Notes: generated by a model not told the origin, from the letters alone. A DNA stretch of 64,000 nucleotides from an uncultured candidatus Brocadiaceae bacterium (GCA_964521715.1 CAZFSS010000001.1:26802-90801), one strand, 5' to 3'; numbered from the stretch's first letter, positions 6,455-46,004 are shown. Translations and numbers: made by a program.

Positions 6455-7559
6455 GGGGGCCGCCTCCGCACGCGCGTTCCACGGCGGCGTCGAGCAGGGG
6501 GGCGACGCGGTCCCACCCGAACCGGCGCATCTCGGCGCTCAGGTCCACGGATCTCGCCTCGCCCGGACGCTCGATCCAGCGGACGAGCCGGGCCTTCAAG
6601 CCGTCCCTGTCCCCGTAGAGGCACGCATCGTGCCGGCCAGCCGGCAGCAGCTCCGGATAGCTCAGATCGTCCGGCAGAAGAGGCGCGCAGCCCGCATAGA
6701 CGGCTTCCACCACCGAGATGCCGAAGAACTCCTGCACGGCGGTCGACACGACGACGTCGCTTTCCAGCAGGAGCCGGCAGTACTCGGCGCGGGACTGCAC
6801 GTAGCCGAAACTCCTGATGCGGGGCGCAAGGCGCCGACGGGCCTCCTCGAAGATCGCCGGCGCCGTGCGGAACGTCTGGCCCGTGACGACGAGCCGGAAC
6901 TCGCGGCCCTCGTCCTGGAGTTCCATCATCAGGTCGAAGAACGTCTCGGCCCCCTTGTCGTACTCCCACCGGTGGTTCCACAGGATGCAGAGCGGGCCGT
7001 CCGGCGCTTTGGCCGAGCCGCGCTGGGCGTCGATGGACGCGAGGTCCACGCCCACGGGCACGACTTCCGAACGCTGCCTGATCCGCTCCGCCGCCCAGTC
7101 CGGCGCGTAATCCGGCATGCGTGCCAGCAGATGCCCCGCCGCCGCGAGGAAGCTCTCCATGTGGTAGCGCGAGTTGAAGAGCACGCGGTCGGCGGCCAGG
7201 CACGTCGTGATGTTCGTGAAGCCGAACTGATAGTCTCGCTCGTCCTCGCTCGGCAGGGGATAGGTGAGCTGGTTCTCGTGGAAGTAGGCCACACAGGGCA
7301 CGCCGCCCAGCAGTTCCGCCCGCGTGCCGAGGAGGGCGGCCAGGTCAAGGTAGTCGCTGACCAGCAGCGCGTCGAACGTGCCGCGCCGTTCGCTCAGGAG
7401 CTCCCCCATGGCCAGCGCCGCGCCCCGCATCCGCCACTTCCATTTGCGCGCCGGCATCGTGAGCAGATCGAGCCTGTGGCGGCTGTGCCCGCGATAGCCG
7501 TCCAGGAATGCCTGATGCGAGCCGCCGTAGTAGGGCTCCAGGGCGAGGACGCGCAGCAT
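6447..7559 (-). CDS. DUF3524-type glycosyltransferase (GT4-like)
   Basis: N-terminus MLRVLALEPYYGGSHQAFLDG is characteristic of DUF3524/GT1 proteins; C-terminal GT-B motifs (EFFGISVVEAVYAGCAPLLP); 8-bp overlap with the downstream BatA gene. Confidence 0.75.
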   Translation of the reverse strand: MLRVLALEPYYGGSHQAFLDGYRGHSRHRLDLLTMPARKWKWRMRGAALAMGELLSERRGTFDALLVSDYLDLAALLGTRAELLGGVPCVAYFHENQLTYPLPSEDERDYQFGFTNITTCLAADRVLFNSRYHMESFLAAAGHLLARMPDYAPDWAAERIRQRSEVVPVGVDLASIDAQRGSAKAPDGPLCILWNHRWEYDKGAETFFDLMMELQDEGREFRLVVTGQTFRTAPAIFEEARRRLAPRIRSFGYVQSRAEYCRLLLESDVVVSTAVQEFFGISVVEAVYAGCAPLLPDDLSYPELLPAGRHDACLYGDRDGLKARLVRWIERPGEARSVDLSAEMRRFGWDRVAPLLDAAVERACGGGPHG

Positions 7560-12099: not shown

Positions 12100-13050
12100 T
12101 CAAACGGCCCACTTCGGATCAGGCCGAAGGCGGGCCAGCTCGCCGGCCAGACCCTCGCAGGCCCGCACGTAGTGCGCGTCGCCAAAGACCCGCACGTGCA
12201 GCAGCATCGTATTGAGCCAGTAGACGCGGCAGCGCACGTCGAACCCGTCGCGAAGGGCGTGGCAGCGGGCGTACTCGCGGAAGAAGGGCGCCCCCGCCGT
12301 GTTGAACACCAGCAGGTAGGCCAGCTCGTACTCGACGTCGCAGCAGTCGGCGCCGCCGTCCACGAAGCCGCTGATCCGCGCCCCGCCCGGGCCCGCCGGC
12401 TCGACGATGATGTTCGTTGCCCAGAGGTCGCCGTGGACGAGCGTCGGCTCGCCGGACTCGGGCAGCCATTGGTCCAGGTGCTCCAGCACGTCCGTTATGG
12501 CGGTCCGGGCTTGGGCGGTGAGGCGCCCCGCCACCGAGTCGAACTCCCTGCGGATCCGCGGGCCGAAACGGTCGAGCCATCGCGGTGTGCCCCGGTCCTC
12601 CGGCTCCAGGGCGCTGCCGTAGGTGGCGCGGCGGTGCTCGTGCAAGTCCGCCAGTATGCCGGCCATCTCGCGCTCGACCGCCGCCCGCTCGCCGGCCGCG
12701 AGCCGGGCGTGCCCCAGGTTGGTGCCGGGCAGGCGCTCCATCAGCAGGCAACTGCCGCGAAAGATACGCCCGGACGTGTCAGCGCCGTACGGCTCAGGCA
12801 CAGGGAAGCCGGTGTTGGCCCGATACCACCGCAGCACGCGGCATTCCCACTCGAAGCCGGCGTGTCCCGGCTCGGAAGAGAGCTTCGCGACGATCTTGCG
12901 CGGCTCTCCGTCGGTGGTCAGCTCCAGCACGCTGTTGACCATCCCGCCGTGGAGCCGGTCTATGGCCGTCACGGTGAGGGGGCGGCCGACGAGGGCGCGG
13001 ACAAGCTCCGTGGCGGACTCCCGGGATATCGTGGTGGTGTCGAAGACCAT
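12100..13050 (-). CDS. fructosamine/ketosamine-3-kinase family protein (aminoglycoside phosphotransferase fold)
   Basis: Motifs LHGGMVNSV, PTLVHGDLWATNIIV and FVDGGADCCD typical of the fructosamine kinase / APH family. Confidence 0.8.
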   Translation of the reverse strand: MVFDTTTISRESATELVRALVGRPLTVTAIDRLHGGMVNSVLELTTDGEPRKIVAKLSSEPGHAGFEWECRVLRWYRANTGFPVPEPYGADTSGRIFRGSCLLMERLPGTNLGHARLAAGERAAVEREMAGILADLHEHRRATYGSALEPEDRGTPRWLDRFGPRIRREFDSVAGRLTAQARTAITDVLEHLDQWLPESGEPTLVHGDLWATNIIVEPAGPGGARISGFVDGGADCCDVEYELAYLLVFNTAGAPFFREYARCHALRDGFDVRCRVYWLNTMLLHVRVFGDAHYVRACEGLAGELARLRPDPKWAV

Positions 13051-13193
13051 GCTGCCGTTCCGGTCGGCGCTGTCAGAGCCAGTGGCGGGCCGGAGTCTAC
13101 ACGGCCTGGGGCGCAGTGCGCAAGTCGAGGCCCCGGAAGAGCGTCCACGTGGTGCACAATGTTTCCCATAAAGCCCGCATGTCGGCCCCGAAT

Positions 13194-13222
13194 TTGACTG
13201 CTGCTTACCTTTTCCATATAAT
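13194..13222 (+). promoter_or_regulatory. sigma-70 type promoter (TTGACT-17-TATAAT)
   Basis: Consensus -35 TTGACT and perfect -10 TATAAT with 17-nt spacer, about 70 nt upstream of the 13293 start; coordinates read from the sequence, +/-2. Confidence 0.55.
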
Positions 13223-13292
13223 GCGTAGCTCGCGTGGGTAAGCTCTTTGAGTTCCCAATCGCAATCTGGAGGCGCGGCGAGGGTAACGGGAG

Positions 13293-13823
13293 ATGGCGGC
13301 GCGGAACAGGGGCTCGCGTAAGGCAGACGCCGGCGCGGGGTCCCGCCCCCAGGGGGACGGCGGCACCGAAGTGCGGGACATCGGGTGGGGTCTGACGGCT
13401 GAGGAAGAGGAGGACTTCTTCCTGCGTAGGGTTCTCTTCTCTGTTCTCGTCGTCGTGGTGGTGTGTATAGGCTTCTGGTTCCTGGTGACCACCGTGCGGA
13501 GCGCTCCCGGGCAGACGCCGGCGCTTATCGCGCCGGCCGCCTATCTGCCGGAGCAGGGGCGCTACACGATCAGGCTGCTGACCTTCCCGGCCGCCAGGGA
13601 GGACGAGGCCAGGCGCCTGGCGGAGGCGCAGGCCGTCAGGGAGCTGGCGGGGCAGGAGGAGTTCCGTTGTCTGCCACTCGGCGACGGGCAGATGGCCCTC
13701 TGCGTCGGGAGTTTTGAGAGCGAGAGCTCGCCCGAGATGGACGAGCTGTTGCGCAGGTTCCGGAGTTTCACTGCGCAGGATAGGAAGCTGTTTGGAGACG
13801 CCGCGGTCCACCGCGTGCCGTAG
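13293..13823 (+). CDS. membrane-anchored protein with SPOR-like C-terminal domain (hypothetical)
   Basis: Charged N-terminus, one TM helix (VLFSVLVVVVVCIGFWFLV), C-terminal segment YTIRLLTFPAAREDEARRLAEAQAV...GQMALCVGSFES resembling a SPOR peptidoglycan-binding repeat. Confidence 0.5.
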   Translation: MAARNRGSRKADAGAGSRPQGDGGTEVRDIGWGLTAEEEEDFFLRRVLFSVLVVVVVCIGFWFLVTTVRSAPGQTPALIAPAAYLPEQGRYTIRLLTFPAAREDEARRLAEAQAVRELAGQEEFRCLPLGDGQMALCVGSFESESSPEMDELLRRFRSFTAQDRKLFGDAAVHRVP

Positions 13824-13874
13824 CCGTCCTCCTGGCTTTGCATCAGATCACCGCACATACAGGGAAGAAACACC

Positions 13875-14129
13875 ATGTCAATGCACAAGAGCTTGAAACG
13901 GAAGGACCACCTGACCAGGCGGCGCAACGTCCTGACCCGAGCCGAGCGCATCGAGCGGCTCAAGAAGGACGAGAAGTGGAACCCGGAGCAGGACTCCGTG
14001 TTCGGCCTGCCGAAGATCCTGCCGGAGGTGGTCGAGGCCCCCAGTGCGCGACGGCCTGCCGAGGAGAAAGCGGAAGGCGCCGCGGGAGCCAAGAGCGCCG
14101 CGCCCGAAGGCGAGCAAGCCGAGGAGTAG
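13875..14129 (+). CDS. small basic protein (PVC-superphylum type)
   Basis: 84-aa Lys/Arg-rich protein MSMHKSLKRKDHLTRRRNVLTRAERIERLKKDEKW; ATG preceded by agggaagaaacacc; resembles the conserved small basic protein of Planctomycetes/Verrucomicrobia (from memory, not verified). Confidence 0.55.
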   Translation: MSMHKSLKRKDHLTRRRNVLTRAERIERLKKDEKWNPEQDSVFGLPKILPEVVEAPSARRPAEEKAEGAAGAKSAAPEGEQAEE

Positions 14130-14175
14130 TCCGTCCCCCGACCGCCGATCCCGACCTGCTGCCAGGAGAGACCCC

Positions 14176-15282
14176 GTGGACGCTTCCGCACTTATCGCAG
14201 CGCGGATGGGCCGGATAGACTCGTCGGGCATCCGCAAGGTCTTCGATCTGGCCAAGACGCTCAAGAATCCCATCAACCTGAGCATCGGCCAGCCCGACTT
14301 CGACGTGCCCGCGCCGGTCAAGGCCAGCGCCATCCGTGCCATTGAGTCGGGCCAGAACAAGTACACCGTTACTCAGGGCATACAGGAACTGCGGGACGCG
14401 GTCCTTGAGTTCGAGCGGCGCGCGACGGGCATCCGGCATGACAGCGTCCTGATAACCAGCGGCGTCAGCGGGGCGATGCTGCTGGCGTTCATGGCGTTGA
14501 TCGACCCCGGCGACAGGGTCGCCATCCCCGATCCCTACTTCGTGATGTACAAGCACCTGTGCCGGCTGCTGGGCGGCGTGCCGCTCTACGTGGACACCTA
14601 TCCCGACTTCGGGCTTACGGCCGAGCGGCTCGACGCGGCCGGGGCCGCCGAGGCCAAGCTCCTGATGGTCAACAGCCCGTGCAACCCGACGGGCCGCGTG
14701 CTGTCCGAGGGCGAGCTGCGCGGCGTGGCGGACTGGGCGCGGCGCAACGAGGTCTTCGTCGTCAGCGATGAGATCTACCGGGCCTTCTGCTACGACGGGG
14801 AATGCCCGAGCATCGCCGGCATGACGGACGACGTGCTGCTTATGAACGGGTTCAGCAAGACGGCGGCCATGACGGGCTGGCGCCTCGGGTACGCGGTCGG
14901 GCCCGGCCCCATCATCGAGGAGATGGTGAAGCTGCAGCAGTTCAGCTTCGTGTGCGCTCCCTCGATTGCGCAGCATGCCGGCGTCGTCGCGCTGGGGCTC
15001 TCGACGGAGGACTACGTGCGCGCGTACAGGGCCAAGCGCGATCTGGTCTACCAGGGGCTGCAGGGGAAGTTCGACCTTCAGGAGCCTCAGGGGGCCTTCT
15101 ACGCCTTCGTAAGGGCGCCGGGGGGCGACGGCGACGGATTCTGCCAGAGGGCCATCGGGCGCAGCGTGCTCGTCATCCCGGGCAGCGTGTTCAGCGAGAG
15201 GGCGACGCACTTCCGGCTCTCGTTCGCCGCAGAGGACGCGGTGATCCAGGAGGGGGTCCGGGCGCTCTGCTCGCTCGTCTGA
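14176..15282 (+). CDS. pyridoxal-phosphate-dependent aminotransferase (class I/II, aspartate aminotransferase-like)
   Basis: Motifs NLSIGQPDF, NSPCNPTG, LMNGFSKTAAMTGWRLGY (Lys in SKT is the PLP lysine); GTG start at 14176 after ggagag RBS (ATG alternative at 14206). Confidence 0.85.
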   Translation: MDASALIAARMGRIDSSGIRKVFDLAKTLKNPINLSIGQPDFDVPAPVKASAIRAIESGQNKYTVTQGIQELRDAVLEFERRATGIRHDSVLITSGVSGAMLLAFMALIDPGDRVAIPDPYFVMYKHLCRLLGGVPLYVDTYPDFGLTAERLDAAGAAEAKLLMVNSPCNPTGRVLSEGELRGVADWARRNEVFVVSDEIYRAFCYDGECPSIAGMTDDVLLMNGFSKTAAMTGWRLGYAVGPGPIIEEMVKLQQFSFVCAPSIAQHAGVVALGLSTEDYVRAYRAKRDLVYQGLQGKFDLQEPQGAFYAFVRAPGGDGDGFCQRAIGRSVLVIPGSVFSERATHFRLSFAAEDAVIQEGVRALCSLV

Positions 15283-15297: not shown

Positions 15298-16728
15298 CTA
15301 CCTGACGCCGTACTTATCCAGCTTGCGGTACAGCGTGGCGCGGCTGACGCCGAGCTTGCGGGCGGCCTTGCTGATATCCCCGTCGCACTTCTTGACGGCC
15401 GCCAGGATGGCGCGCTTCTCCAATTCGGCGATGGGGACCACTTCGTCGGTTTCCTCCGGTTCGGCGGGGGGGGCTTGCAGCGCCTGTTTGATGCACGCCA
15501 GGGCCTCTTCGACCGCCAGGGGGGGCGTCTTGCGCTTGGCGGCTTCCTCCCGGATGCGCTCGGGAAACAGGTCGGCGGTCACCCTGTCGCTGGTGGCCAG
15601 AAGCACGATCCGTTCGATCGTGTTGGCCAGCTCGCGCACGTTGCCCGGCCAGGGATGGCAGAGCAGCACGCGCACGGCTTCCGGTGAGAAGTCCCAGAAG
15701 TACTTGTTGTACTTCTCGCGCATCAGGATCAGGAAGTGCTGGGCCAGCACGGGGATGTCCTCGGGCCTCTCCCGGAGGGGCGGGATGAAGATGGGCACGA
15801 TGTTGAGGCGGTAGTAAAGGTCGTCGCGCAGCCGGCCCTTCTCGACCTCTGCCAGCGGGTCCTTGTTCGTGGCGGCTATGACGCGCGCGTTCACTTCGAT
15901 GTCCTCGGTGCCGCCGACGCGCGTGAAGATCTGGTTCTGCAGGAAGCGGAGCAGCTTCGACTGCAACCCCAGGTCCATCTCGCAGATCTCGTCCAGGAAC
16001 AACGTGCCCCGGTGCGCCCGCTCGCAGCAGCCGATGTGCTGGCGGTCGGCGCTGGTGAAGGCGCCCTTCTCGTGCCCGAACAGCTCGCTTTCCAGCAAGT
16101 CCTTGGGGATGGCGGCGCAGTTGACGGTCACGAACGCGCCGTCCACCCGGCTGCTCAGTTGATGGATGGCGCGGGCGACCAGTTCCTTGCCCGTGCCGCT
16201 TTCGCCCCAGACCAGGACCGTGGCGTCCGTGTTGGAGATGCTCTTGATCCGTGCGTAAATCTCGTGCATTGAGGGGCTTACGCCCACCAGGTCGCCGAGC
16301 GCGCCGCGTTCGTACACCGCAGTCAGCCGCTTGACCTGGACGACGAGGCGGTGCTTCTGCGCCGCATCGAGCAGAGCCCGGGCCAACTGGTTGTCCCCAT
16401 CGCCGACGTCCACGAAGTCCTCCGCCCCTTTCTTCATGCACTCGACGATGGTCCGCGCAGCCGGCTCTTTCCCCACGACGATCATGGGCAGGTCGGGGTA
16501 CTCCTCGCGGAAGCGTTCCAGGCAGCCGTCCTTGCCGGTGGAGCACTTCGCGTCGACCACCACGACGTCGGGCACTTCCTTGGTCATCTGGCGCAGGAGG
16601 GCCTCGCAGTCCTTGCACGATACGTTCTGGACGGAGGAGCCGTCTATCTCCGGCGGAACGAGCTTGGCCACGGCGCTGTTTCCGACCGTGTAGACGCGAA
16701 GCCCGGGCTGGATTTCCTGTTCGGCCAT
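15298..16728 (-). CDS. sigma-54-dependent transcriptional activator (NtrC/Fis family) with atypical N-terminal receiver-like domain
   Basis: AAA+ sigma-54 interaction motifs VLVWGESGTGKELVARAIH, GAFTSA, ESELFGHEKGAF, and C-terminal Fis-type HTH (ISKAARKLGVSRATLYRKL); N-terminal ~130 aa lacks the canonical receiver acidic pocket. Confidence 0.9.
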   Translation of the reverse strand: MAEQEIQPGLRVYTVGNSAVAKLVPPEIDGSSVQNVSCKDCEALLRQMTKEVPDVVVVDAKCSTGKDGCLERFREEYPDLPMIVVGKEPAARTIVECMKKGAEDFVDVGDGDNQLARALLDAAQKHRLVVQVKRLTAVYERGALGDLVGVSPSMHEIYARIKSISNTDATVLVWGESGTGKELVARAIHQLSSRVDGAFVTVNCAAIPKDLLESELFGHEKGAFTSADRQHIGCCERAHRGTLFLDEICEMDLGLQSKLLRFLQNQIFTRVGGTEDIEVNARVIAATNKDPLAEVEKGRLRDDLYYRLNIVPIFIPPLRERPEDIPVLAQHFLILMREKYNKYFWDFSPEAVRVLLCHPWPGNVRELANTIERIVLLATSDRVTADLFPERIREEAAKRKTPPLAVEEALACIKQALQAPPAEPEETDEVVPIAELEKRAILAAVKKCDGDISKAARKLGVSRATLYRKLDKYGVR

Positions 16729-16729
16729 T

Positions 16730-17110
16730 TCAGTCTGCCCCTTGCAGCGCGGCCTGAACGCGCTCCAGGGCTCGGCTGGGGCTGAAGGGCTTGGTCATGT
16801 ACTCGTCCGCGCCTGCGGCCAGGCCTTGCTCGCGATCGGCCTGCTGGCCCTTGGCGGTGAGTATGATCACGTACGTGCGGGCCAGGTCATCCCTCGACTT
16901 GATCCTGCGGCACACGTCGTAACCGTCCAGTTCGGGCATCATGATGTCCAGGAAGACGAGGTCCGGACGTTCCTGCTGGATCACGTCAAGCGCTTCGACT
17001 CCGCTGCGCGCCTCCAGGACGCCGTAGCCGGCCTTCTTCAGGACAAACCCGAGGGAACGGAGAATGTGCGGTTCGTCGTCGACGATGAGGACCTTCTTTG
17101 CGTCCGGCAT
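16730..17110 (-). CDS. response regulator receiver protein (single-domain, CheY-like)
   Basis: KKVLIVDDEPHILRSL...DLVFLDIMMPELDGYDV...ILTAKG...EYMTKPF: complete receiver signature (DD, D, T, K). Confidence 0.9.
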   Translation of the reverse strand: MPDAKKVLIVDDEPHILRSLGFVLKKAGYGVLEARSGVEALDVIQQERPDLVFLDIMMPELDGYDVCRRIKSRDDLARTYVIILTAKGQQADREQGLAAGADEYMTKPFSPSRALERVQAALQGAD

Positions 17111-17157
17111 GCCGCCCGTCCCGACCGGCCATAGAGGAGTGGCGACCCTCTGGCGCG

Positions 17158-17595
17158 TCAGCCGCCCTCTCGCTCCTTTATGGACTGGATAGCTTGTTCT
17201 TCGGTTTCGTTTACGTCGAAGACGCGAGTCAACCGGGTCAGCTCGAAGATGGAGCGACAGAAGGCGGGCACTTCGGCCAGGCGCAGTTCGCCGCCCTCTG
17301 CCGCCGCCCTCCGAAGGCAGCTCACGAGCGCTCCCAGGCCCGCGCTGTCGATGAAGTCCATCTTCTCCAGGTTCAGTATCAGGTTCTTTGCGCCGCCCTC
17401 GATCAGGCCGTGCAGTTCGGACTTGATCTCAGACGCCGACAGGGCGTCGAAACGCCCCTCAATGTCAACCACCGTGATGCCGTCATGCTGGCGGGTATCG
17501 CTGATCACTGGTGCAGATCCTCCGACTCGCCTGGTAAGGGAAGCGCAACCCGCTGCACCGTAATGATAAGGGCCGCCGCGCTGGTTGTCAATCAC
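17158..17595 (-). CDS. STAS-domain anti-sigma-factor antagonist (SpoIIAA-like)
   Basis: ITVVDIEGRFDALSASEIKSELHGLI...MDFIDSAGLGALVS matches the STAS/SpoIIAA fold; an internal GTG at 17506-17508 would give a more typical 116-aa product. Confidence 0.75.
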   Translation of the reverse strand: MIDNQRGGPYHYGAAGCASLTRRVGGSAPVISDTRQHDGITVVDIEGRFDALSASEIKSELHGLIEGGAKNLILNLEKMDFIDSAGLGALVSCLRRAAAEGGELRLAEVPAFCRSIFELTRLTRVFDVNETEEQAIQSIKEREGG

Positions 17596-18140
17596 CGTGC
17601 GGTTGGGGCGTGTCCTGCCGGTCGCACCGGCGCGCGTTCAGCAGGTCCAGATAGGCGCCCTCTACCAGGTCGTCCTTCCCGATCCCCATCGCCTGCATGA
17701 GCTTGCGCGCAACGGCGGCCCCCTCCTCCGGAGACTGGTCCTCGCGCACGACGACTTCGATCTCCACGAAGCAGCCCAGTCCCTCGACCTCGTCCAGGTG
17801 CACGCGCGTCTGGCCGACCATGTGGAGCGTCCTTTGCTTGCGGACCGCCCCGATGACGCCCAGGGCGCGGCGCAGCACTTCTTTGAGCGCTTCTGGAGCC
17901 TCCGTCCCGGCCAGCCAGTACGTGGACTGCCTGGGGCCCGGGGAGTCCGGTCGTTCGTAGAAGATGAGCTGCCCGCGGCCCTCGTCCTCCAGGCGCAGCT
18001 TCAGCCTGCCCGTCGGCACGCGGAAGAAGATGTCTTCGTGCTTCAGCAGGATGCCCGGCCCGCCGCTCAACTGCTCGGCCCGCTCGCGGACGGCCTCCAG
18101 GTCGCGGACGGACGCCTTCACCTCGACGTTTCGCGGCATG
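17588..18140 (-). CDS. CYTH-domain protein (class IV adenylate cyclase / CyaB-like)
   Basis: ATG at 18138-18140; MPRNVEVKASV...HEDIFFRVPTGRLKLRLEDEGRGQLIFYER...CFVEIEVV matches the CYTH (CyaB/thiamine triphosphatase) triphosphate tunnel fold; overlaps the STAS gene start. Confidence 0.75.
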
Positions 18141-18289: not shown

Positions 18290-19180
18290 ATGAGCGAGAC
18301 GGTGCCGTTGCTTCTGGACACGGACATCGGTTCGGACATTGACGACGCCATATGTTTGACCTACCTGCTGGCCGAGCCGCGGTGCGAGCTGCTGGGGGTG
18401 ACGACCGTGACGGGACAGCCGCGCGAGCGCGCCATGCTGGCGGACGCCGTCTGCCGGGCCGCCGGCCGCCGCGACGTGCCCATCATGAGTGGCTGCGACC
18501 GGCCGATCCTCTACCAGCAGAAGCAGCCGAAGGCGCCCCAGGCCGAAGTGCTGCCGGACTGGGACCACCGCGAGGACTTCGAGCAGTACGAGGCGGTGGA
18601 TTTCCTCCGGCGGACCATCCGTGCGCGGCCCGGCGAGGTGACGCTGCTGACCATCGGCCCGCTCACCAACGCCGGCCTGCTCTTCGCCGTGGACCCCGAG
18701 GCGGCCGGAATGCTGAAGCGACTGGTGATGATGGGCGGCTACTACTTCGAGCCGGGCGCGAACGAGTGGAATACCTCGGGCGATCCGATCGCCAGCGCCC
18801 TGGTCTTTGACGCGGACGTGCCGGAGCTCGTGGCCTTCGGGCTCGACGTGACGCTGAGGTGCAAGCTCTCCGCCGACGAGTGCCGCCGGCGTTTCCGGGG
18901 CGGGCCGTTCGACGTGGTACACCAGATGGCCGAAGTGTGGTACCGCCGCGCGGAGCACATTACGTTTCACGATCCGCTGGCCGCCGCCTGCGTCTTCGAG
19001 CCCGATCTCTGCACGTACCGGACCGGCCGCGTCACCATGGACCTCACGAAGGGGGCCACGTACGGGGTCACGCTGTTCGAGGAGGAGCCCGACGGGCCGC
19101 ACCGCGTGGCCAGGGACGTCGACGCCGCGCGGTTCTTCGATCATTACTTCAGCGTGACGGCCGTGTTCAGAGACGCGTAG
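18290..19180 (+). CDS. nucleoside hydrolase (inosine/uridine-preferring, IU-NH family)
   Basis: N-terminal fingerprint LLLDTDIGSDIDDAICLTYLL (DxDxxxDD) of IU nucleoside hydrolases; ATG at 18290 after ggag; only this 3' part of the 531-aa track ORF is coding. Confidence 0.9.
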   Translation: MSETVPLLLDTDIGSDIDDAICLTYLLAEPRCELLGVTTVTGQPRERAMLADAVCRAAGRRDVPIMSGCDRPILYQQKQPKAPQAEVLPDWDHREDFEQYEAVDFLRRTIRARPGEVTLLTIGPLTNAGLLFAVDPEAAGMLKRLVMMGGYYFEPGANEWNTSGDPIASALVFDADVPELVAFGLDVTLRCKLSADECRRRFRGGPFDVVHQMAEVWYRRAEHITFHDPLAAACVFEPDLCTYRTGRVTMDLTKGATYGVTLFEEEPDGPHRVARDVDAARFFDHYFSVTAVFRDA

Positions 19181-44474: not shown

Positions 44475-44557
44475 CGCCTGCGACGCCTTCCGAGCCTCCA
44501 CCGCGTGCGGCTTCTCCCGCGATTCGTTGGTGCGTCCCGCATTTGAGGGCAGCGCAG

Positions 44558-45418
44558 ATGGACACTCCGCTGGGCATCGTCGGGGGCAGTGGCCTCTACC
44601 GAATGGAGGGGCTCGAGGTCGAGCAGGAGGCGGAGGTCCGGACGCCCTTCGGCGAACCGTCGGACCGTTACGTGCTGGGCCGGCTGGACGGGCGGCCCGT
44701 CGCGTTCCTGGCCAGGCACGGGCGCGGGCATACCCTCATGCCCGGCGAGGTGAATTACCGGGCCAACGTCTACGGCTTCAAGAAGCTGGGAGTCCAGCGC
44801 CTGGTGGCCGTCTCTGCCGTCGGCAGCATGAGGGAGGAAATCCATCCGCTGCACATCGTGTTGCCCGATCAGTTCATTGATCGGACGCGCGGGCGGGCGG
44901 ACACATTCTTCGGCCGCGGCGTCGTGGCCCACGTTTCCTTCGCGCAGCCGGTCTGCCCCGAGCTGCATGGCGCGCTCCTGCGGGCGGCGGAATCCTCCGG
45001 CGCCACCGTCTGGCCGGGGGGGACGTACGTCTGCATCGAGGGGCCGGCCTTCTCCACGCGGGCCGAATCCCGACTCTACCGTTCCTGGGAAGTCAGCGTG
45101 ATCGGCATGACGAACCTGCCCGAGGCAAAGCTTGCCCGCGAGGCGGAGATGTGTTACGCTACGCTCGCCCTCGTGACAGACTTCGATTGCTGGCACGAAG
45201 CCGAGGAGGAGGTCTCCGTGGAGATGCTGCTGGATAACCTGCAGAGCAACGCCGGCACGGCCCGGCAGATCCTGAGGGCGCTCGTGCAGACGGTTCCTCC
45301 CGAACGCGCCTGCCCCTGTCGGGACGCCCTCCGAGACGCCATCGTTACCTCGCGCGAACACATCCCGGCGGAGACCAGAAGTAGACTGGACATCATCATT
45401 GGAAGATACGTAAAATAG
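44558..45418 (+). CDS. mtnP: S-methyl-5'-thioadenosine phosphorylase
   Basis: LGIVGGSGLY, MTNLPEAKLAREAEMCYATLALVTDFDCW typical of MTAP/PNP family II. Confidence 0.9.
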   Translation: MDTPLGIVGGSGLYRMEGLEVEQEAEVRTPFGEPSDRYVLGRLDGRPVAFLARHGRGHTLMPGEVNYRANVYGFKKLGVQRLVAVSAVGSMREEIHPLHIVLPDQFIDRTRGRADTFFGRGVVAHVSFAQPVCPELHGALLRAAESSGATVWPGGTYVCIEGPAFSTRAESRLYRSWEVSVIGMTNLPEAKLAREAEMCYATLALVTDFDCWHEAEEEVSVEMLLDNLQSNAGTARQILRALVQTVPPERACPCRDALRDAIVTSREHIPAETRSRLDIIIGRYVK

Positions 45419-45461: not shown

Positions 45462-46004
45462 ATGGCAGAGGAAATCGTCATAAAGTGCCAGAAGTGCGGA
45501 CAGAAGCTGAAGCTGACCGACAGCCGTTATATCGGGCGCAAGGGGCGGTGCCCGAAATGCGGGTCCGTGATCCGGTTCCAGAAGAGCGGCGAGGGCAAAG
45601 CGGACGGCAGCGAGCAGCAGGTCGTGGAGGTGGACGAAGTCGCCACCCGCAAGGACGCCCTGCTGAGGATACAGAAGCAGAATCAGGTGGCTGTCGTCAG
45701 CTTCTCGACCTCCCGGATACTGGATCAGACGAACGTCCAGCAGCTCGGCGAGGAGCTCGACGCCCTCGTGGACGAGCACAAGCTCGACAAGATCGTGCTG
45801 AACTTCGCCGGCGTCACCTACATGAGCAGCGCCGTCATGGGCAAGCTGGTCAGCCTCCTGAAGAAGGTCAAGACCGCCGGCGGCCGGTTGAAGCTCTGCA
45901 GTATCGAAGACAGCATCTATGAGATCTTCGAGATCATGCGGTTCGACAAGATGTTCGACATCGCGCAGAATGAAGACGACGCGGTGATCGACCTGATGGA
46001 CTGA
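45462..46004 (+). CDS. zinc-ribbon + STAS domain protein (anti-sigma-factor antagonist-like)
   Basis: N-terminal CQKCGQKLKL...CPKCGSVIRF zinc ribbon; C-terminal STAS-like fold (VAVVSFSTSRILDQTNVQQLGEELDALV...KIVLNFAGVTYMSSAVMGKLVSL). Confidence 0.75.
   Translation: MAEEIVIKCQKCGQKLKLTDSRYIGRKGRCPKCGSVIRFQKSGEGKADGSEQQVVEVDEVATRKDALLRIQKQNQVAVVSFSTSRILDQTNVQQLGEELDALVDEHKLDKIVLNFAGVTYMSSAVMGKLVSLLKKVKTAGGRLKLCSIEDSIYEIFEIMRFDKMFDIAQNEDDAVIDLMD

Follow-up and report, generated by a model that had tools for sequence, protein, structure and literature searches.

The DNA analyzed here, termed the window, is a 64,000-nucleotide (nt) stretch with a G+C content of 68% from an uncultured candidatus Brocadiaceae bacterium (GCA_964521715.1 CAZFSS010000001.1:26802-90801). 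Four consecutive minus-strand genes within it encode a CYTH-domain protein, a STAS-domain protein, a stand-alone CheY-type receiver (REC) and a sigma-54 enhancer-binding protein (bEBP) (Table 1). The genes were recognized in a first-pass annotation made from the sequence alone and are real, each with a Pfam match. Two further details of that annotation agree with the sequence: the REC stop codon is 1 nt from the bEBP ATG, and a gene for a nucleoside hydrolase of the IU_nuc_hydro family faces CYTH divergently. At the other end of the cluster, the 3′ end of bEBP is 15 nt from a convergent aminotransferase gene. The proposal that the four genes form a single CYTH-STAS-CheY-activator operon was not sustained, as STAS has its own conserved promoter and CYTH adjoins STAS in only one of the 14 loci considered below, that of the window. 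Instead, STAS, REC and bEBP constitute a three-gene operon with its own sigma-70 promoter and CYTH is outside the unit. Sequence comparisons indicate that this operon belongs to a conserved STAS-(REC)-pseudo-receiver-bEBP module of Planctomycetota which appears to have descended from a Syp- or Rsb-like cassette.

Table 1. Genes, protein domains and promoters at and beside the STAS-REC-bEBP operon
Feature	Position	Strand	Details
CYTH-domain gene	18139-17588	-	183 aa; Pfam CYTH 70.6 bits
STAS gene	17508-17158 (revised GTG start)	-	116 aa; longest open reading frame open from 17595; PF01740 70.2 bits
Stand-alone CheY-type receiver (REC)	17110-16730	-	126 aa; Response_reg 112.7 bits
Sigma-54 enhancer-binding protein (bEBP)	16728-15298	-	476 aa; Sigma54_activat 229.4 bits, AAA_lid_14, HTH_8
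bEBP pseudo-receiver domain	16728-16393	-	aa 1-112; AlphaFold2 model, Foldseek and alignment
bEBP long helical linker	16392-16300	-	aa 113-143; single helix in AlphaFold2 model
bEBP AAA+ sigma-54 interaction domain	16290-15790	-	aa 147-313; PF00158
bEBP Fis-type HTH_8 DNA-binding domain	15432-15310	-	aa 433-473; PF02954 54 bits
Sigma-70-type promoter of the STAS-REC-bEBP operon	17591-17563	-	TTGACA, 17-nt spacer, TATCAT; 11/12 match to consensus
Sigma-70-like promoter candidate 5′ of CYTH	18198-18170	-	TTGACA, 17-nt spacer, AAGAAT; 10/12 match to consensus
Inosine-uridine-preferring nucleoside hydrolase gene	18290-19180	+	Pfam IU_nuc_hydro 184 bits; divergent from CYTH

The STAS gene has its own promoter and CYTH is a chance neighbor

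The overlap between the CYTH stop codon and the STAS start codon that was noted in the first-pass annotation is true only for the longest open reading frame (ORF), which begins at GTG 17595 and is an over-extended call. A scan for sigma-70-type promoters located a promoter between the CYTH stop codon and an internal GTG at 17508. Both its -35 hexamer (TTGACA, 17591-17586), inside which the CYTH stop codon falls, and its -10 hexamer (TATCAT, 17568-17563) are 3′ of GTG 17595. All 11 family loci examined (the window and ten relatives) have a TTGACx-17-TAxxxT element 128-158 nt 5′ of the GRFDA codon of STAS. The element is kept irrespective of which gene is upstream, and in-frame stop codons separate it from STAS in seven of the 11. 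GTG 17508 has a Shine-Dalgarno sequence (GGAGGA) 9 nt to its 5′ side, and translation from this codon gives 116 residues, a length more frequent than any other in the 120 clusters of the STAS subfamily, where the N-termini read MI-x-N. As the promoter, the in-frame stops, the Shine-Dalgarno sequence and the homologue length all favor GTG 17508, the overlap is an artifact of selecting the longest ORF. STAS starts at GTG 17508 and therefore is separated from CYTH by a 79-nt spacer that bears the promoter.

The gene 5′ of STAS varies between loci. In L003, a relative with 76% identity, the order is nucleoside hydrolase, CYTH, a thrC-like pyridoxal phosphate (PLP) enzyme, STAS, REC and bEBP. The window differs from L003 chiefly by the absence of the thrC-like gene, and it is because this gene is missing that CYTH adjoins STAS. 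CYTH was not detected in any locus annotated by similarity besides the window and L003: the upstream gene is thrC-like without CYTH in L001 and L005, encodes an ADP-ribosylglycohydrolase in L006, and elsewhere specifies a tetratricopeptide repeat protein, an apurinic/apyrimidinic endonuclease or an aminotransferase. The thrC-like enzymes (PALP family, 444-448 residues; L003 4476-5822, L005 2934-4268, L001 5787-7121) possess N-terminal CxxC motifs that are zinc-ribbon-like in appearance.

The CYTH protein had been described as class IV adenylate-cyclase-like and as a potential nucleotide-linked input to the activator. The first of these identities was not supported by the comparisons: the score against TIGR00318 (cyaB) is 43.4 bits compared to the NCBIfam cut-off of 57.95, and the nearest solved structures are archaeal CYTH proteins without known function, with solved class IV cyclases matched only at E ~0.003. 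The N-terminus of the protein reads M-P-R-N-V-E-V-K (18139-18119) in which Asn replaces the first Glu of the ExExK signature, and the L003 orthologue has the same Asn (R-R-N-V-E-V-K). Judged from the signature, the substitution could affect metal binding or catalysis. A four-gene operon in which CYTH makes or hydrolyzes a nucleotide or polyphosphate signal that reaches the activator through STAS and CheY has almost no likelihood. CYTH and STAS share a strand and lack an intervening terminator-like site, such that some read-through is possible, and CYTH also is nearby in L003; however, the thrC-like gene intervenes in the latter, and a CYTH gene that is not a conserved neighbor, that is separated from STAS by the conserved STAS promoter rather than overlapping with it, and whose product scores under the cyclase cut-off provides no basis for the nucleotide-linked input. 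CYTH is a chance neighbor of the operon and has no role in the unit. For annotation, the lesson is that the apparent CYTH link and the stop/start overlap were longest-ORF artifacts that comparative promoter evidence corrected.

STAS is paired with bEBP across the family

A STAS gene of one subfamily is directly 5′ of bEBP in 14 of 14 loci that could be inspected (the window, L001, L003, L005, L006, L013, L015, L017, L019, L020, L022, L100, L101 and L103). These loci span 47-100% bEBP identity and have differing upstream genes. Four of them (L019, L100, L101 and L103), which were inspected from the bEBP side, form a deep tier with 47-51% bEBP identity and carry a larger cassette described below; the clade of the window is referred to as the reduced clade. 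The adjacency persists where the rest of the cassette is gone from the locus, and in the deep clade the STAS-bEBP junctions are -4 to +19 nt. As a control, generic STAS loci were collected in a metagenome scan with the pattern FIDSxGLG: the scan returned 80 loci, 77 with unrelated STAS genes, and 44 of the latter were usable. None of these 44 (36-42% identity, at least 1.5 kb downstream) has a bEBP gene. An indirect check compared clusters by the size of the longest contig: 37 of 82 bEBP clusters match one of the top 120 STAS-subfamily clusters exactly in this respect, as do 31 of 50 when contigs of at least 6 kb are considered. The family boundary is marked by a Sumerlaeota NtrC with 46% identity that is beside glnD without STAS. 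No STAS-bEBP fusion protein was present among the 120 STAS-subfamily and 120 bEBP clusters listed.

The STAS protein scores 73.4 bits against TIGR00377, above the cut-off of 53.45, which places it in the anti-sigma-antagonist family. Residue Ser-55 within the motif FIDSAGLG aligns with Ser-58 of SpoIIAA and is predicted to be phosphorylatable, and the Asp-Ser phospho-site is retained in 115 of 120 STAS-subfamily clusters. A second STAS gene in the window (45462-46004, plus strand) encodes a 180-residue protein with a Pfam STAS score of 62 bits and an N-terminal zinc-ribbon, the latter scoring 25.5 bits as Zn_ribbon_5 which is under the cut-off of 29.3. This gene is directly 3′ of a gene for a PNP_UDP_1-family (purine/uridine) phosphorylase (44543-45418), and the phospho-site position of its product reads YMSSAVMG, not DSxGLG.

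Adjacency of STAS and bEBP could be meaningless if STAS were an ordinary anti-sigma antagonist for a sigma-70-family switch located elsewhere that happens to be beside an ordinary NtrC-type regulator. STAS genes and RsbW/RsbU modules are abundant in Planctomycetota and, as noted, the window possesses a second STAS gene. Nevertheless, the pairing in all 14 loci with changing flanks compared to none of 44 controls, as well as the lack of a sigma-factor gene in the full cassettes, makes this explanation very improbable.

The bEBP homologues comprise clusters P0001-P0082, with the window protein 100% identical to P0001. The family is narrow: when 1.84 billion proteins were searched with a pseudo-receiver profile, no more than four cluster representatives reached E ≤ 1e-30. 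A search of genome contigs with a narrower N-domain alignment yielded only four true relatives. All named sources of the family are Planctomycetota metagenome-assembled genomes except for one contig labeled Polyangiaceae. The window protein is an AAA+ protein with Walker A (GESGTGKE) and Walker B (LFLDE) motifs, a Sigma54_activat match over residues 147-313, and an AAA_lid_14 match of 89 bits. The sigma-54 contact loop reads GAFTSA (residues 222-227; 16065-16048) compared to the canonical GAFTGA, with the essential Phe-Thr retained. The Ser variant of the loop (GAFTSA or GSFTSA) is found in 29 of 82 close-family clusters, whereas all of the 38 listed bEBPs that are more distant lack it. On the basis of these motifs, the protein looks like a working enhancer-binding protein with a competent AAA+ domain, contact loop and DNA-binding domain.

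The N-terminal domain of bEBP is a degenerate receiver

The first-pass annotation stated that the N-terminal domain of the activator lacks the canonical phospho-acceptor pocket and suggested alignment with receiver profiles as a check. The domain scores 26.1 bits against Response_reg, for which the cut-off is 30.2. When aligned with CheY, NtrC and the neighboring REC, the CheY residues D12, D13, D57, T87 and K109 correspond to G16, N17, D59, G86 and V108 in bEBP. Thus, the domain has a receiver fold with four of the five signature residues lost, and the claim was correct. Residue counts over 72 full-length homologues reinforce the pattern: the equivalents of D12, T87 and K109 are kept in one homologue each, Thr or Ser occupies the T87 position in three, and the D57 position is Asp in 49, Glu in 13 and another residue in ten such that Asp is not conserved. 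The N-domain of bEBP has neither the combination of an acidic Mg2+ pocket with a phospho-acceptor nor the switch residues. By comparison, the deep-clade bEBP P0087 (L103) retains D57, T87 and K109.

An AlphaFold2 model of the domain (42 homologues, pLDDT 82) displays a (beta/alpha)5 receiver fold, C-terminal to which residues 113-143 form a long helix. The best Foldseek matches are the receivers of NtrX, NtrC1 and DctD (TM ~0.7, E ~1e-8), and the matches to the NtrC1 and DctD receiver-plus-linker constructs extend across the helix. The best-conserved part of the pseudo-receiver is the alpha4-beta5 stretch VECMKKGAEDFV. Modeling and alignment together show an N-domain that has kept its fold and is conserved, although not for a role as phospho-acceptor. 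Two cysteines also are common in the reduced-clade pseudo-receivers: Cys-38 occurs in 58 of 72 homologues and Cys-97, which is within VECMKKGAEDFV, in 66 of 72. Both are absent from the deep-clade sequences that were viewed (e.g., P0087). The residues possibly are a ligand, redox or interface feature. A Cys-38-Cys-97 redox pair was set aside as the two positions are at opposite ends of the fold by reading of receiver topology.

The stand-alone REC is complete

As had been noted in the first-pass annotation, a complete single-domain receiver is encoded immediately 5′ of the activator: D11, D12, D55, T85 and K107 all are present in REC. The protein is an orthologue of the REC proteins of the full cassettes, with 57-63% identity to these and 217 bits against a profile made from them. 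The REC gene is between STAS and bEBP in the window, L001, L003, L005, L006 and L022. In L021, a truncated locus, REC likewise comes after STAS. The distance from the REC stop codon to the bEBP start is 0-13 nt in the window, L001, L003 and L005, and the genes overlap by 2 nt in L006. The orthologous REC genes of L019, L100, L103 and L104 instead are directly 5′ of a gene for a PAS-HisKA kinase.

These data bear on a split response regulator in which bEBP would be activated by pairing of its pseudo-receiver with phosphorylated REC across the alpha4-beta5-alpha5 face, with STAS either accessory or unrelated. The short REC-bEBP junctions suggest translational coupling, the pocket of REC is complete whereas that of bEBP is dead, and conservation of the pseudo-receiver is highest in a stretch of this very face. 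However, loci L013, L015, L017 and L020 have no REC gene and yet their bEBP receivers are equally degenerate. Moreover, in the full cassettes REC adjoins the PP2C and kinase genes, not bEBP, the invariant neighbor of which is STAS. A split regulator accordingly is judged improbable.

Deeper relatives possess a full kinase, phosphatase and receiver cassette

In all four relatives of the deep tier that were inspected from the bEBP side, genes for STAS, bEBP, REC, an RsbW-like protein and a SpoIIE/PP2C phosphatase occur together. The phosphatase carries a GAF domain in L019, L101 and L103, and a PAS-HisKA histidine kinase also is encoded in L019, L100 and L103. The order in L019 (P0098) and L103 (P0087) is STAS, bEBP, RsbW-like, GAF-PP2C, REC and PAS histidine kinase. 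Locus L100 (P0099) has STAS, bEBP, RsbW-like, an opposite-strand ORF, PP2C without GAF, REC and the PAS histidine kinase, whereas L101 (P0085) has STAS, bEBP, a second STAS, RsbW-like, GAF-PP2C and REC. A fifth cassette, L104, was reached from the PP2C side and is cut off at its upstream end; it comprises the C-terminal end of bEBP, STAS, RsbW-like, GAF-PP2C, REC and the PAS histidine kinase. Junctions are -4 to +46 nt in L019, L101 and L103, and there is a 894-nt gap before the PP2C gene in L100. The RsbW-like proteins are HATPase_c_2 proteins of 142-174 residues in which the N and G boxes, as read from the sequences, are retained. The cassette REC proteins are 126-129 residues in length. All five full cassettes are without a sigma-factor gene, the place of which is occupied by the bEBP gene.

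The first-pass annotation had suggested a split or partner-switching input into the activator. This suggestion gains strong comparative support from the uniform STAS-bEBP pairing in combination with the kinase, phosphatase and REC genes of the four deeper relatives. From gene content, the operon in the window reads as a reduced form of an ancestral cassette composed of STAS, bEBP, RsbW-like, (GAF-)PP2C, REC and PAS-kinase genes.

Several additional features of the deep cassettes were noted. The second STAS gene is directly 5′ of the RsbW-like gene in L101 (2581-2928) and L104 (247-558), which is the classical rsbV-rsbW order, and in L101 the first STAS remains 5′ of bEBP. The second STAS proteins score 56-62 bits against the profile of the window-clade STAS, no better than SpoIIAA (63). 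The promoter element TTGACA-17-TATxAT is absent from the deep cassettes, where CTCAAG-N18-GGATAAG is found 5′ of STAS in L019 (~6490-6530), L100 (~6480-6520) and L103 (~2200-2240), and TTGAGC-N17-CTAAAG occurs in L101. The deep-clade upstream motif may be a promoter recognized by another sigma factor. In L100 (3447-5748 and 8760-10458) an IS21/Mu-type transposase pair is just 5′ of the cassette and the PP2C protein is short at 253 residues; this cassette looks rearranged.

Relationship to known regulatory systems

Activators of sigma-54 normally are switched by their own sensory domain or by one of a few known binding proteins, such as the GHKL-containing protein NifL which inhibits the bEBP NifA by binding. 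Partner-switching modules are best known on sigma factors with few described on other targets. The bEBP studied here shares with the NtrC1/DctD type a receiver fold and long helical linker that precede the AAA+ domain, and the same Pfam domains follow. It differs from them in the residues G16, N17, G86 and V108 and in the absence of an adjacent cognate histidine kinase. The deep cassettes resemble the RsbV-RsbW-SigB and SpoIIAA-SpoIIAB-SigF systems in combining a STAS protein with a phosphorylatable Ser, a GHKL Ser kinase of the HATPase_c_2 family and a SpoIIE/RsbU PP2C phosphatase within one operon. Unlike these systems, a sigma-factor gene is lacking, bEBP is between the STAS and kinase genes, and the window is without kinase or phosphatase genes.

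Pairs such as PspA-PspF and HrpV/HrpG-HrpS provide a further parallel, as the proposed arrangement likewise has an AAA+ activator that is set by a separately encoded binding protein and not by phosphorylation of its own domain (PMC7057263). However, PspF and HrpS have no N-terminal domain whereas the bEBP here keeps a folded pseudo-receiver and linker, and none of PspA-PspF, HrpV/HrpG-HrpS and NifL-NifA uses a STAS protein or a Ser-phosphorylation switch. The closest match in domain content is the Syp system of Vibrio fischeri, in which the set found in the deep cassettes is distributed among SypA (STAS), SypE (Ser kinase-REC-PP2C), SypF (histidine kinase) and SypG (sigma-54 regulator) (PMC4517449, PMC10120452). 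The six-part Syp-type set is complete in L019, L100 and L103. One component is missing from, or not visible in, each of L101 and L104, and the window has STAS, REC and bEBP only. In contrast to Syp, the kinase, REC and PP2C here are separate proteins with the PP2C usually joined to GAF, the genes for STAS and bEBP are directly coupled, there is no surrounding polysaccharide locus, and the degenerate receiver of bEBP has no counterpart in SypG, a regulator that accepts phosphate normally.

A proposed route from STAS to bEBP

The reading favored here is that STAS, with or without REC, acts as an input in trans to bEBP, for which the sequence comparisons give about an even chance. The pseudo-receiver and linker helix would keep the AAA+ domain inactive in the manner of NtrC1 and DctD, and release would come in trans rather than by Asp phosphorylation. 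An RsbW-type kinase and a PP2C phosphatase would determine whether Ser-55 of STAS is phosphorylated, and STAS would lift the block in one of its two phosphorylation states. To do so, it would bind the pseudo-receiver itself or else capture an RsbW-like protein that otherwise sequesters bEBP; the capture route would amount to a partner switch in which bEBP stands in for the sigma factor. Once phosphorylated by the PAS kinase of the cassette, the stand-alone REC would bias the balance of kinase and phosphatase and so play the part of the SypE REC domain as a separate protein. The sigma-54 target promoters would lie outside the 64-kb window, and CYTH would play no part. There is precedent for each half of the scheme: bEBPs are controlled in trans by binding proteins in the cases of PspA-PspF and HrpV-HrpS (PMC7057263), and the STAS proteins SypA, RbaV, HmpV and BtrV have targets other than sigma factors (PMC10120452). 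The stricter version, a true partner switch in which an RsbW-like GHKL anti-activator docks on the pseudo-receiver and STAS serves as the anti-anti-activator under control of Ser phosphorylation, is a tentative possibility on the doubtful side.

The results include a number of points that weigh against the proposed role of STAS. Gene linkage is the basis for each of the steps proposed to lead from STAS or REC to bEBP. Searches of the 64-kb window with phmmer and small hidden Markov models detected no RsbW-like protein, PP2C protein or histidine kinase of the cassette type. Similarly, none of the top 120 GAF-PP2C homologues is on reduced-clade long contigs, as matched by size, and only deep-clade contigs are linked; the kinase and phosphatase may have been lost or relocated in the reduced lineage. 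The search for sigma-54 promoters that had been suggested as a means to identify targets was run on the window and 11 family loci and found no target promoter: TGGCAC-N5-TTGC with up to two mismatches has 49 matches in the window compared to 62 expected by chance, and a stricter scan of the 11 family loci that required the GG and GC dinucleotides revealed no conserved sigma-54 site. REC is dispensable at the locus, as L013, L015, L017 and L020 of the reduced clade have none beside bEBP. The orthology between the deep- and reduced-clade STAS proteins is only moderate at 61-85 bits, compared to 63 bits for B. subtilis SpoIIAA. Finally, the Vibrio STAS protein SypA acts downstream of transcription and not on the bEBP SypG (PMC4517449).

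The last point is the nucleus of a different explanation based on parallel branches as in Syp, in which one kinase pathway has two independent outputs: bEBP drives a regulon and STAS, set by the RsbW-like kinase, the PP2C and REC, acts post-transcriptionally on another target without ever touching bEBP, such that the linkage reflects a shared process rather than protein binding. The full cassette has the same parts as the Syp regulators, within which SypA functions downstream of syp transcription (PMC4517449, PMC10120452), and P0087 with its D57, T87 and K109 residues could take phosphate from the adjacent kinase. Parallel branches would, however, leave the bEBP of the window clade, which has no normal phospho-acceptor in its receiver, without any input. 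The strict adjacency of STAS and bEBP also outlasts departure of the rest of the cassette, L101 keeps the first STAS with bEBP even though a second STAS adjoins the RsbW-like gene, and no structural genes such as those of a polysaccharide locus surround the cassette. Parallel branches are a serious rival but are considered less likely in light of these observations, and action of STAS on bEBP remains the favored reading.

The literature searched, coverage of which was incomplete, contains no description of a STAS or partner-switch module coupled to a bEBP or with a decayed receiver. The lineage appears to join sigma-54 activation with a STAS phospho-switch through the coupling of STAS to a receiver-dead bEBP, and intermediate genomes still possess the whole cassette of kinase, phosphatase, REC and histidine kinase. 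If STAS or an RsbW-like protein does act on bEBP, this would be a route of sigma-54 control that was not found described, and the range from full to reduced cassettes would display the input of a regulator changing from Asp to Ser phosphorylation. If the mechanism is a partner switch on bEBP, decay of the receiver would mark a hand-over from Asp- to Ser-phosphoryl control in sigma-54 transcription. Orphan Rsb modules of bacteria in the Planctomycetota-Verrucomicrobiota-Chlamydiota (PVC) group then also would have bEBPs as one class of candidate targets.

Conserved neighbors of the module

The nucleoside hydrolase gene is a conserved syntenic neighbor outside the unit that also is present in L001, L003, L005 and L020. 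On the opposite side of the module (window 12100-15282) there are genes for a class I/II aminotransferase, an 84-residue basic protein, a protein of ~176 residues, and an APH/fructosamine-kinase-like protein; neither the basic protein nor the ~176-residue protein has a Pfam match. Synteny on the aminotransferase side is common to L001, L003, L005, L006, L013, L015, L019, L020 and L103. The aminotransferase gene is convergent with bEBP in the reduced clade, and in L019 and L103 is on the same strand as the module directly 5′ of STAS. The enzyme might be functionally linked to the module, or even be one of its targets.

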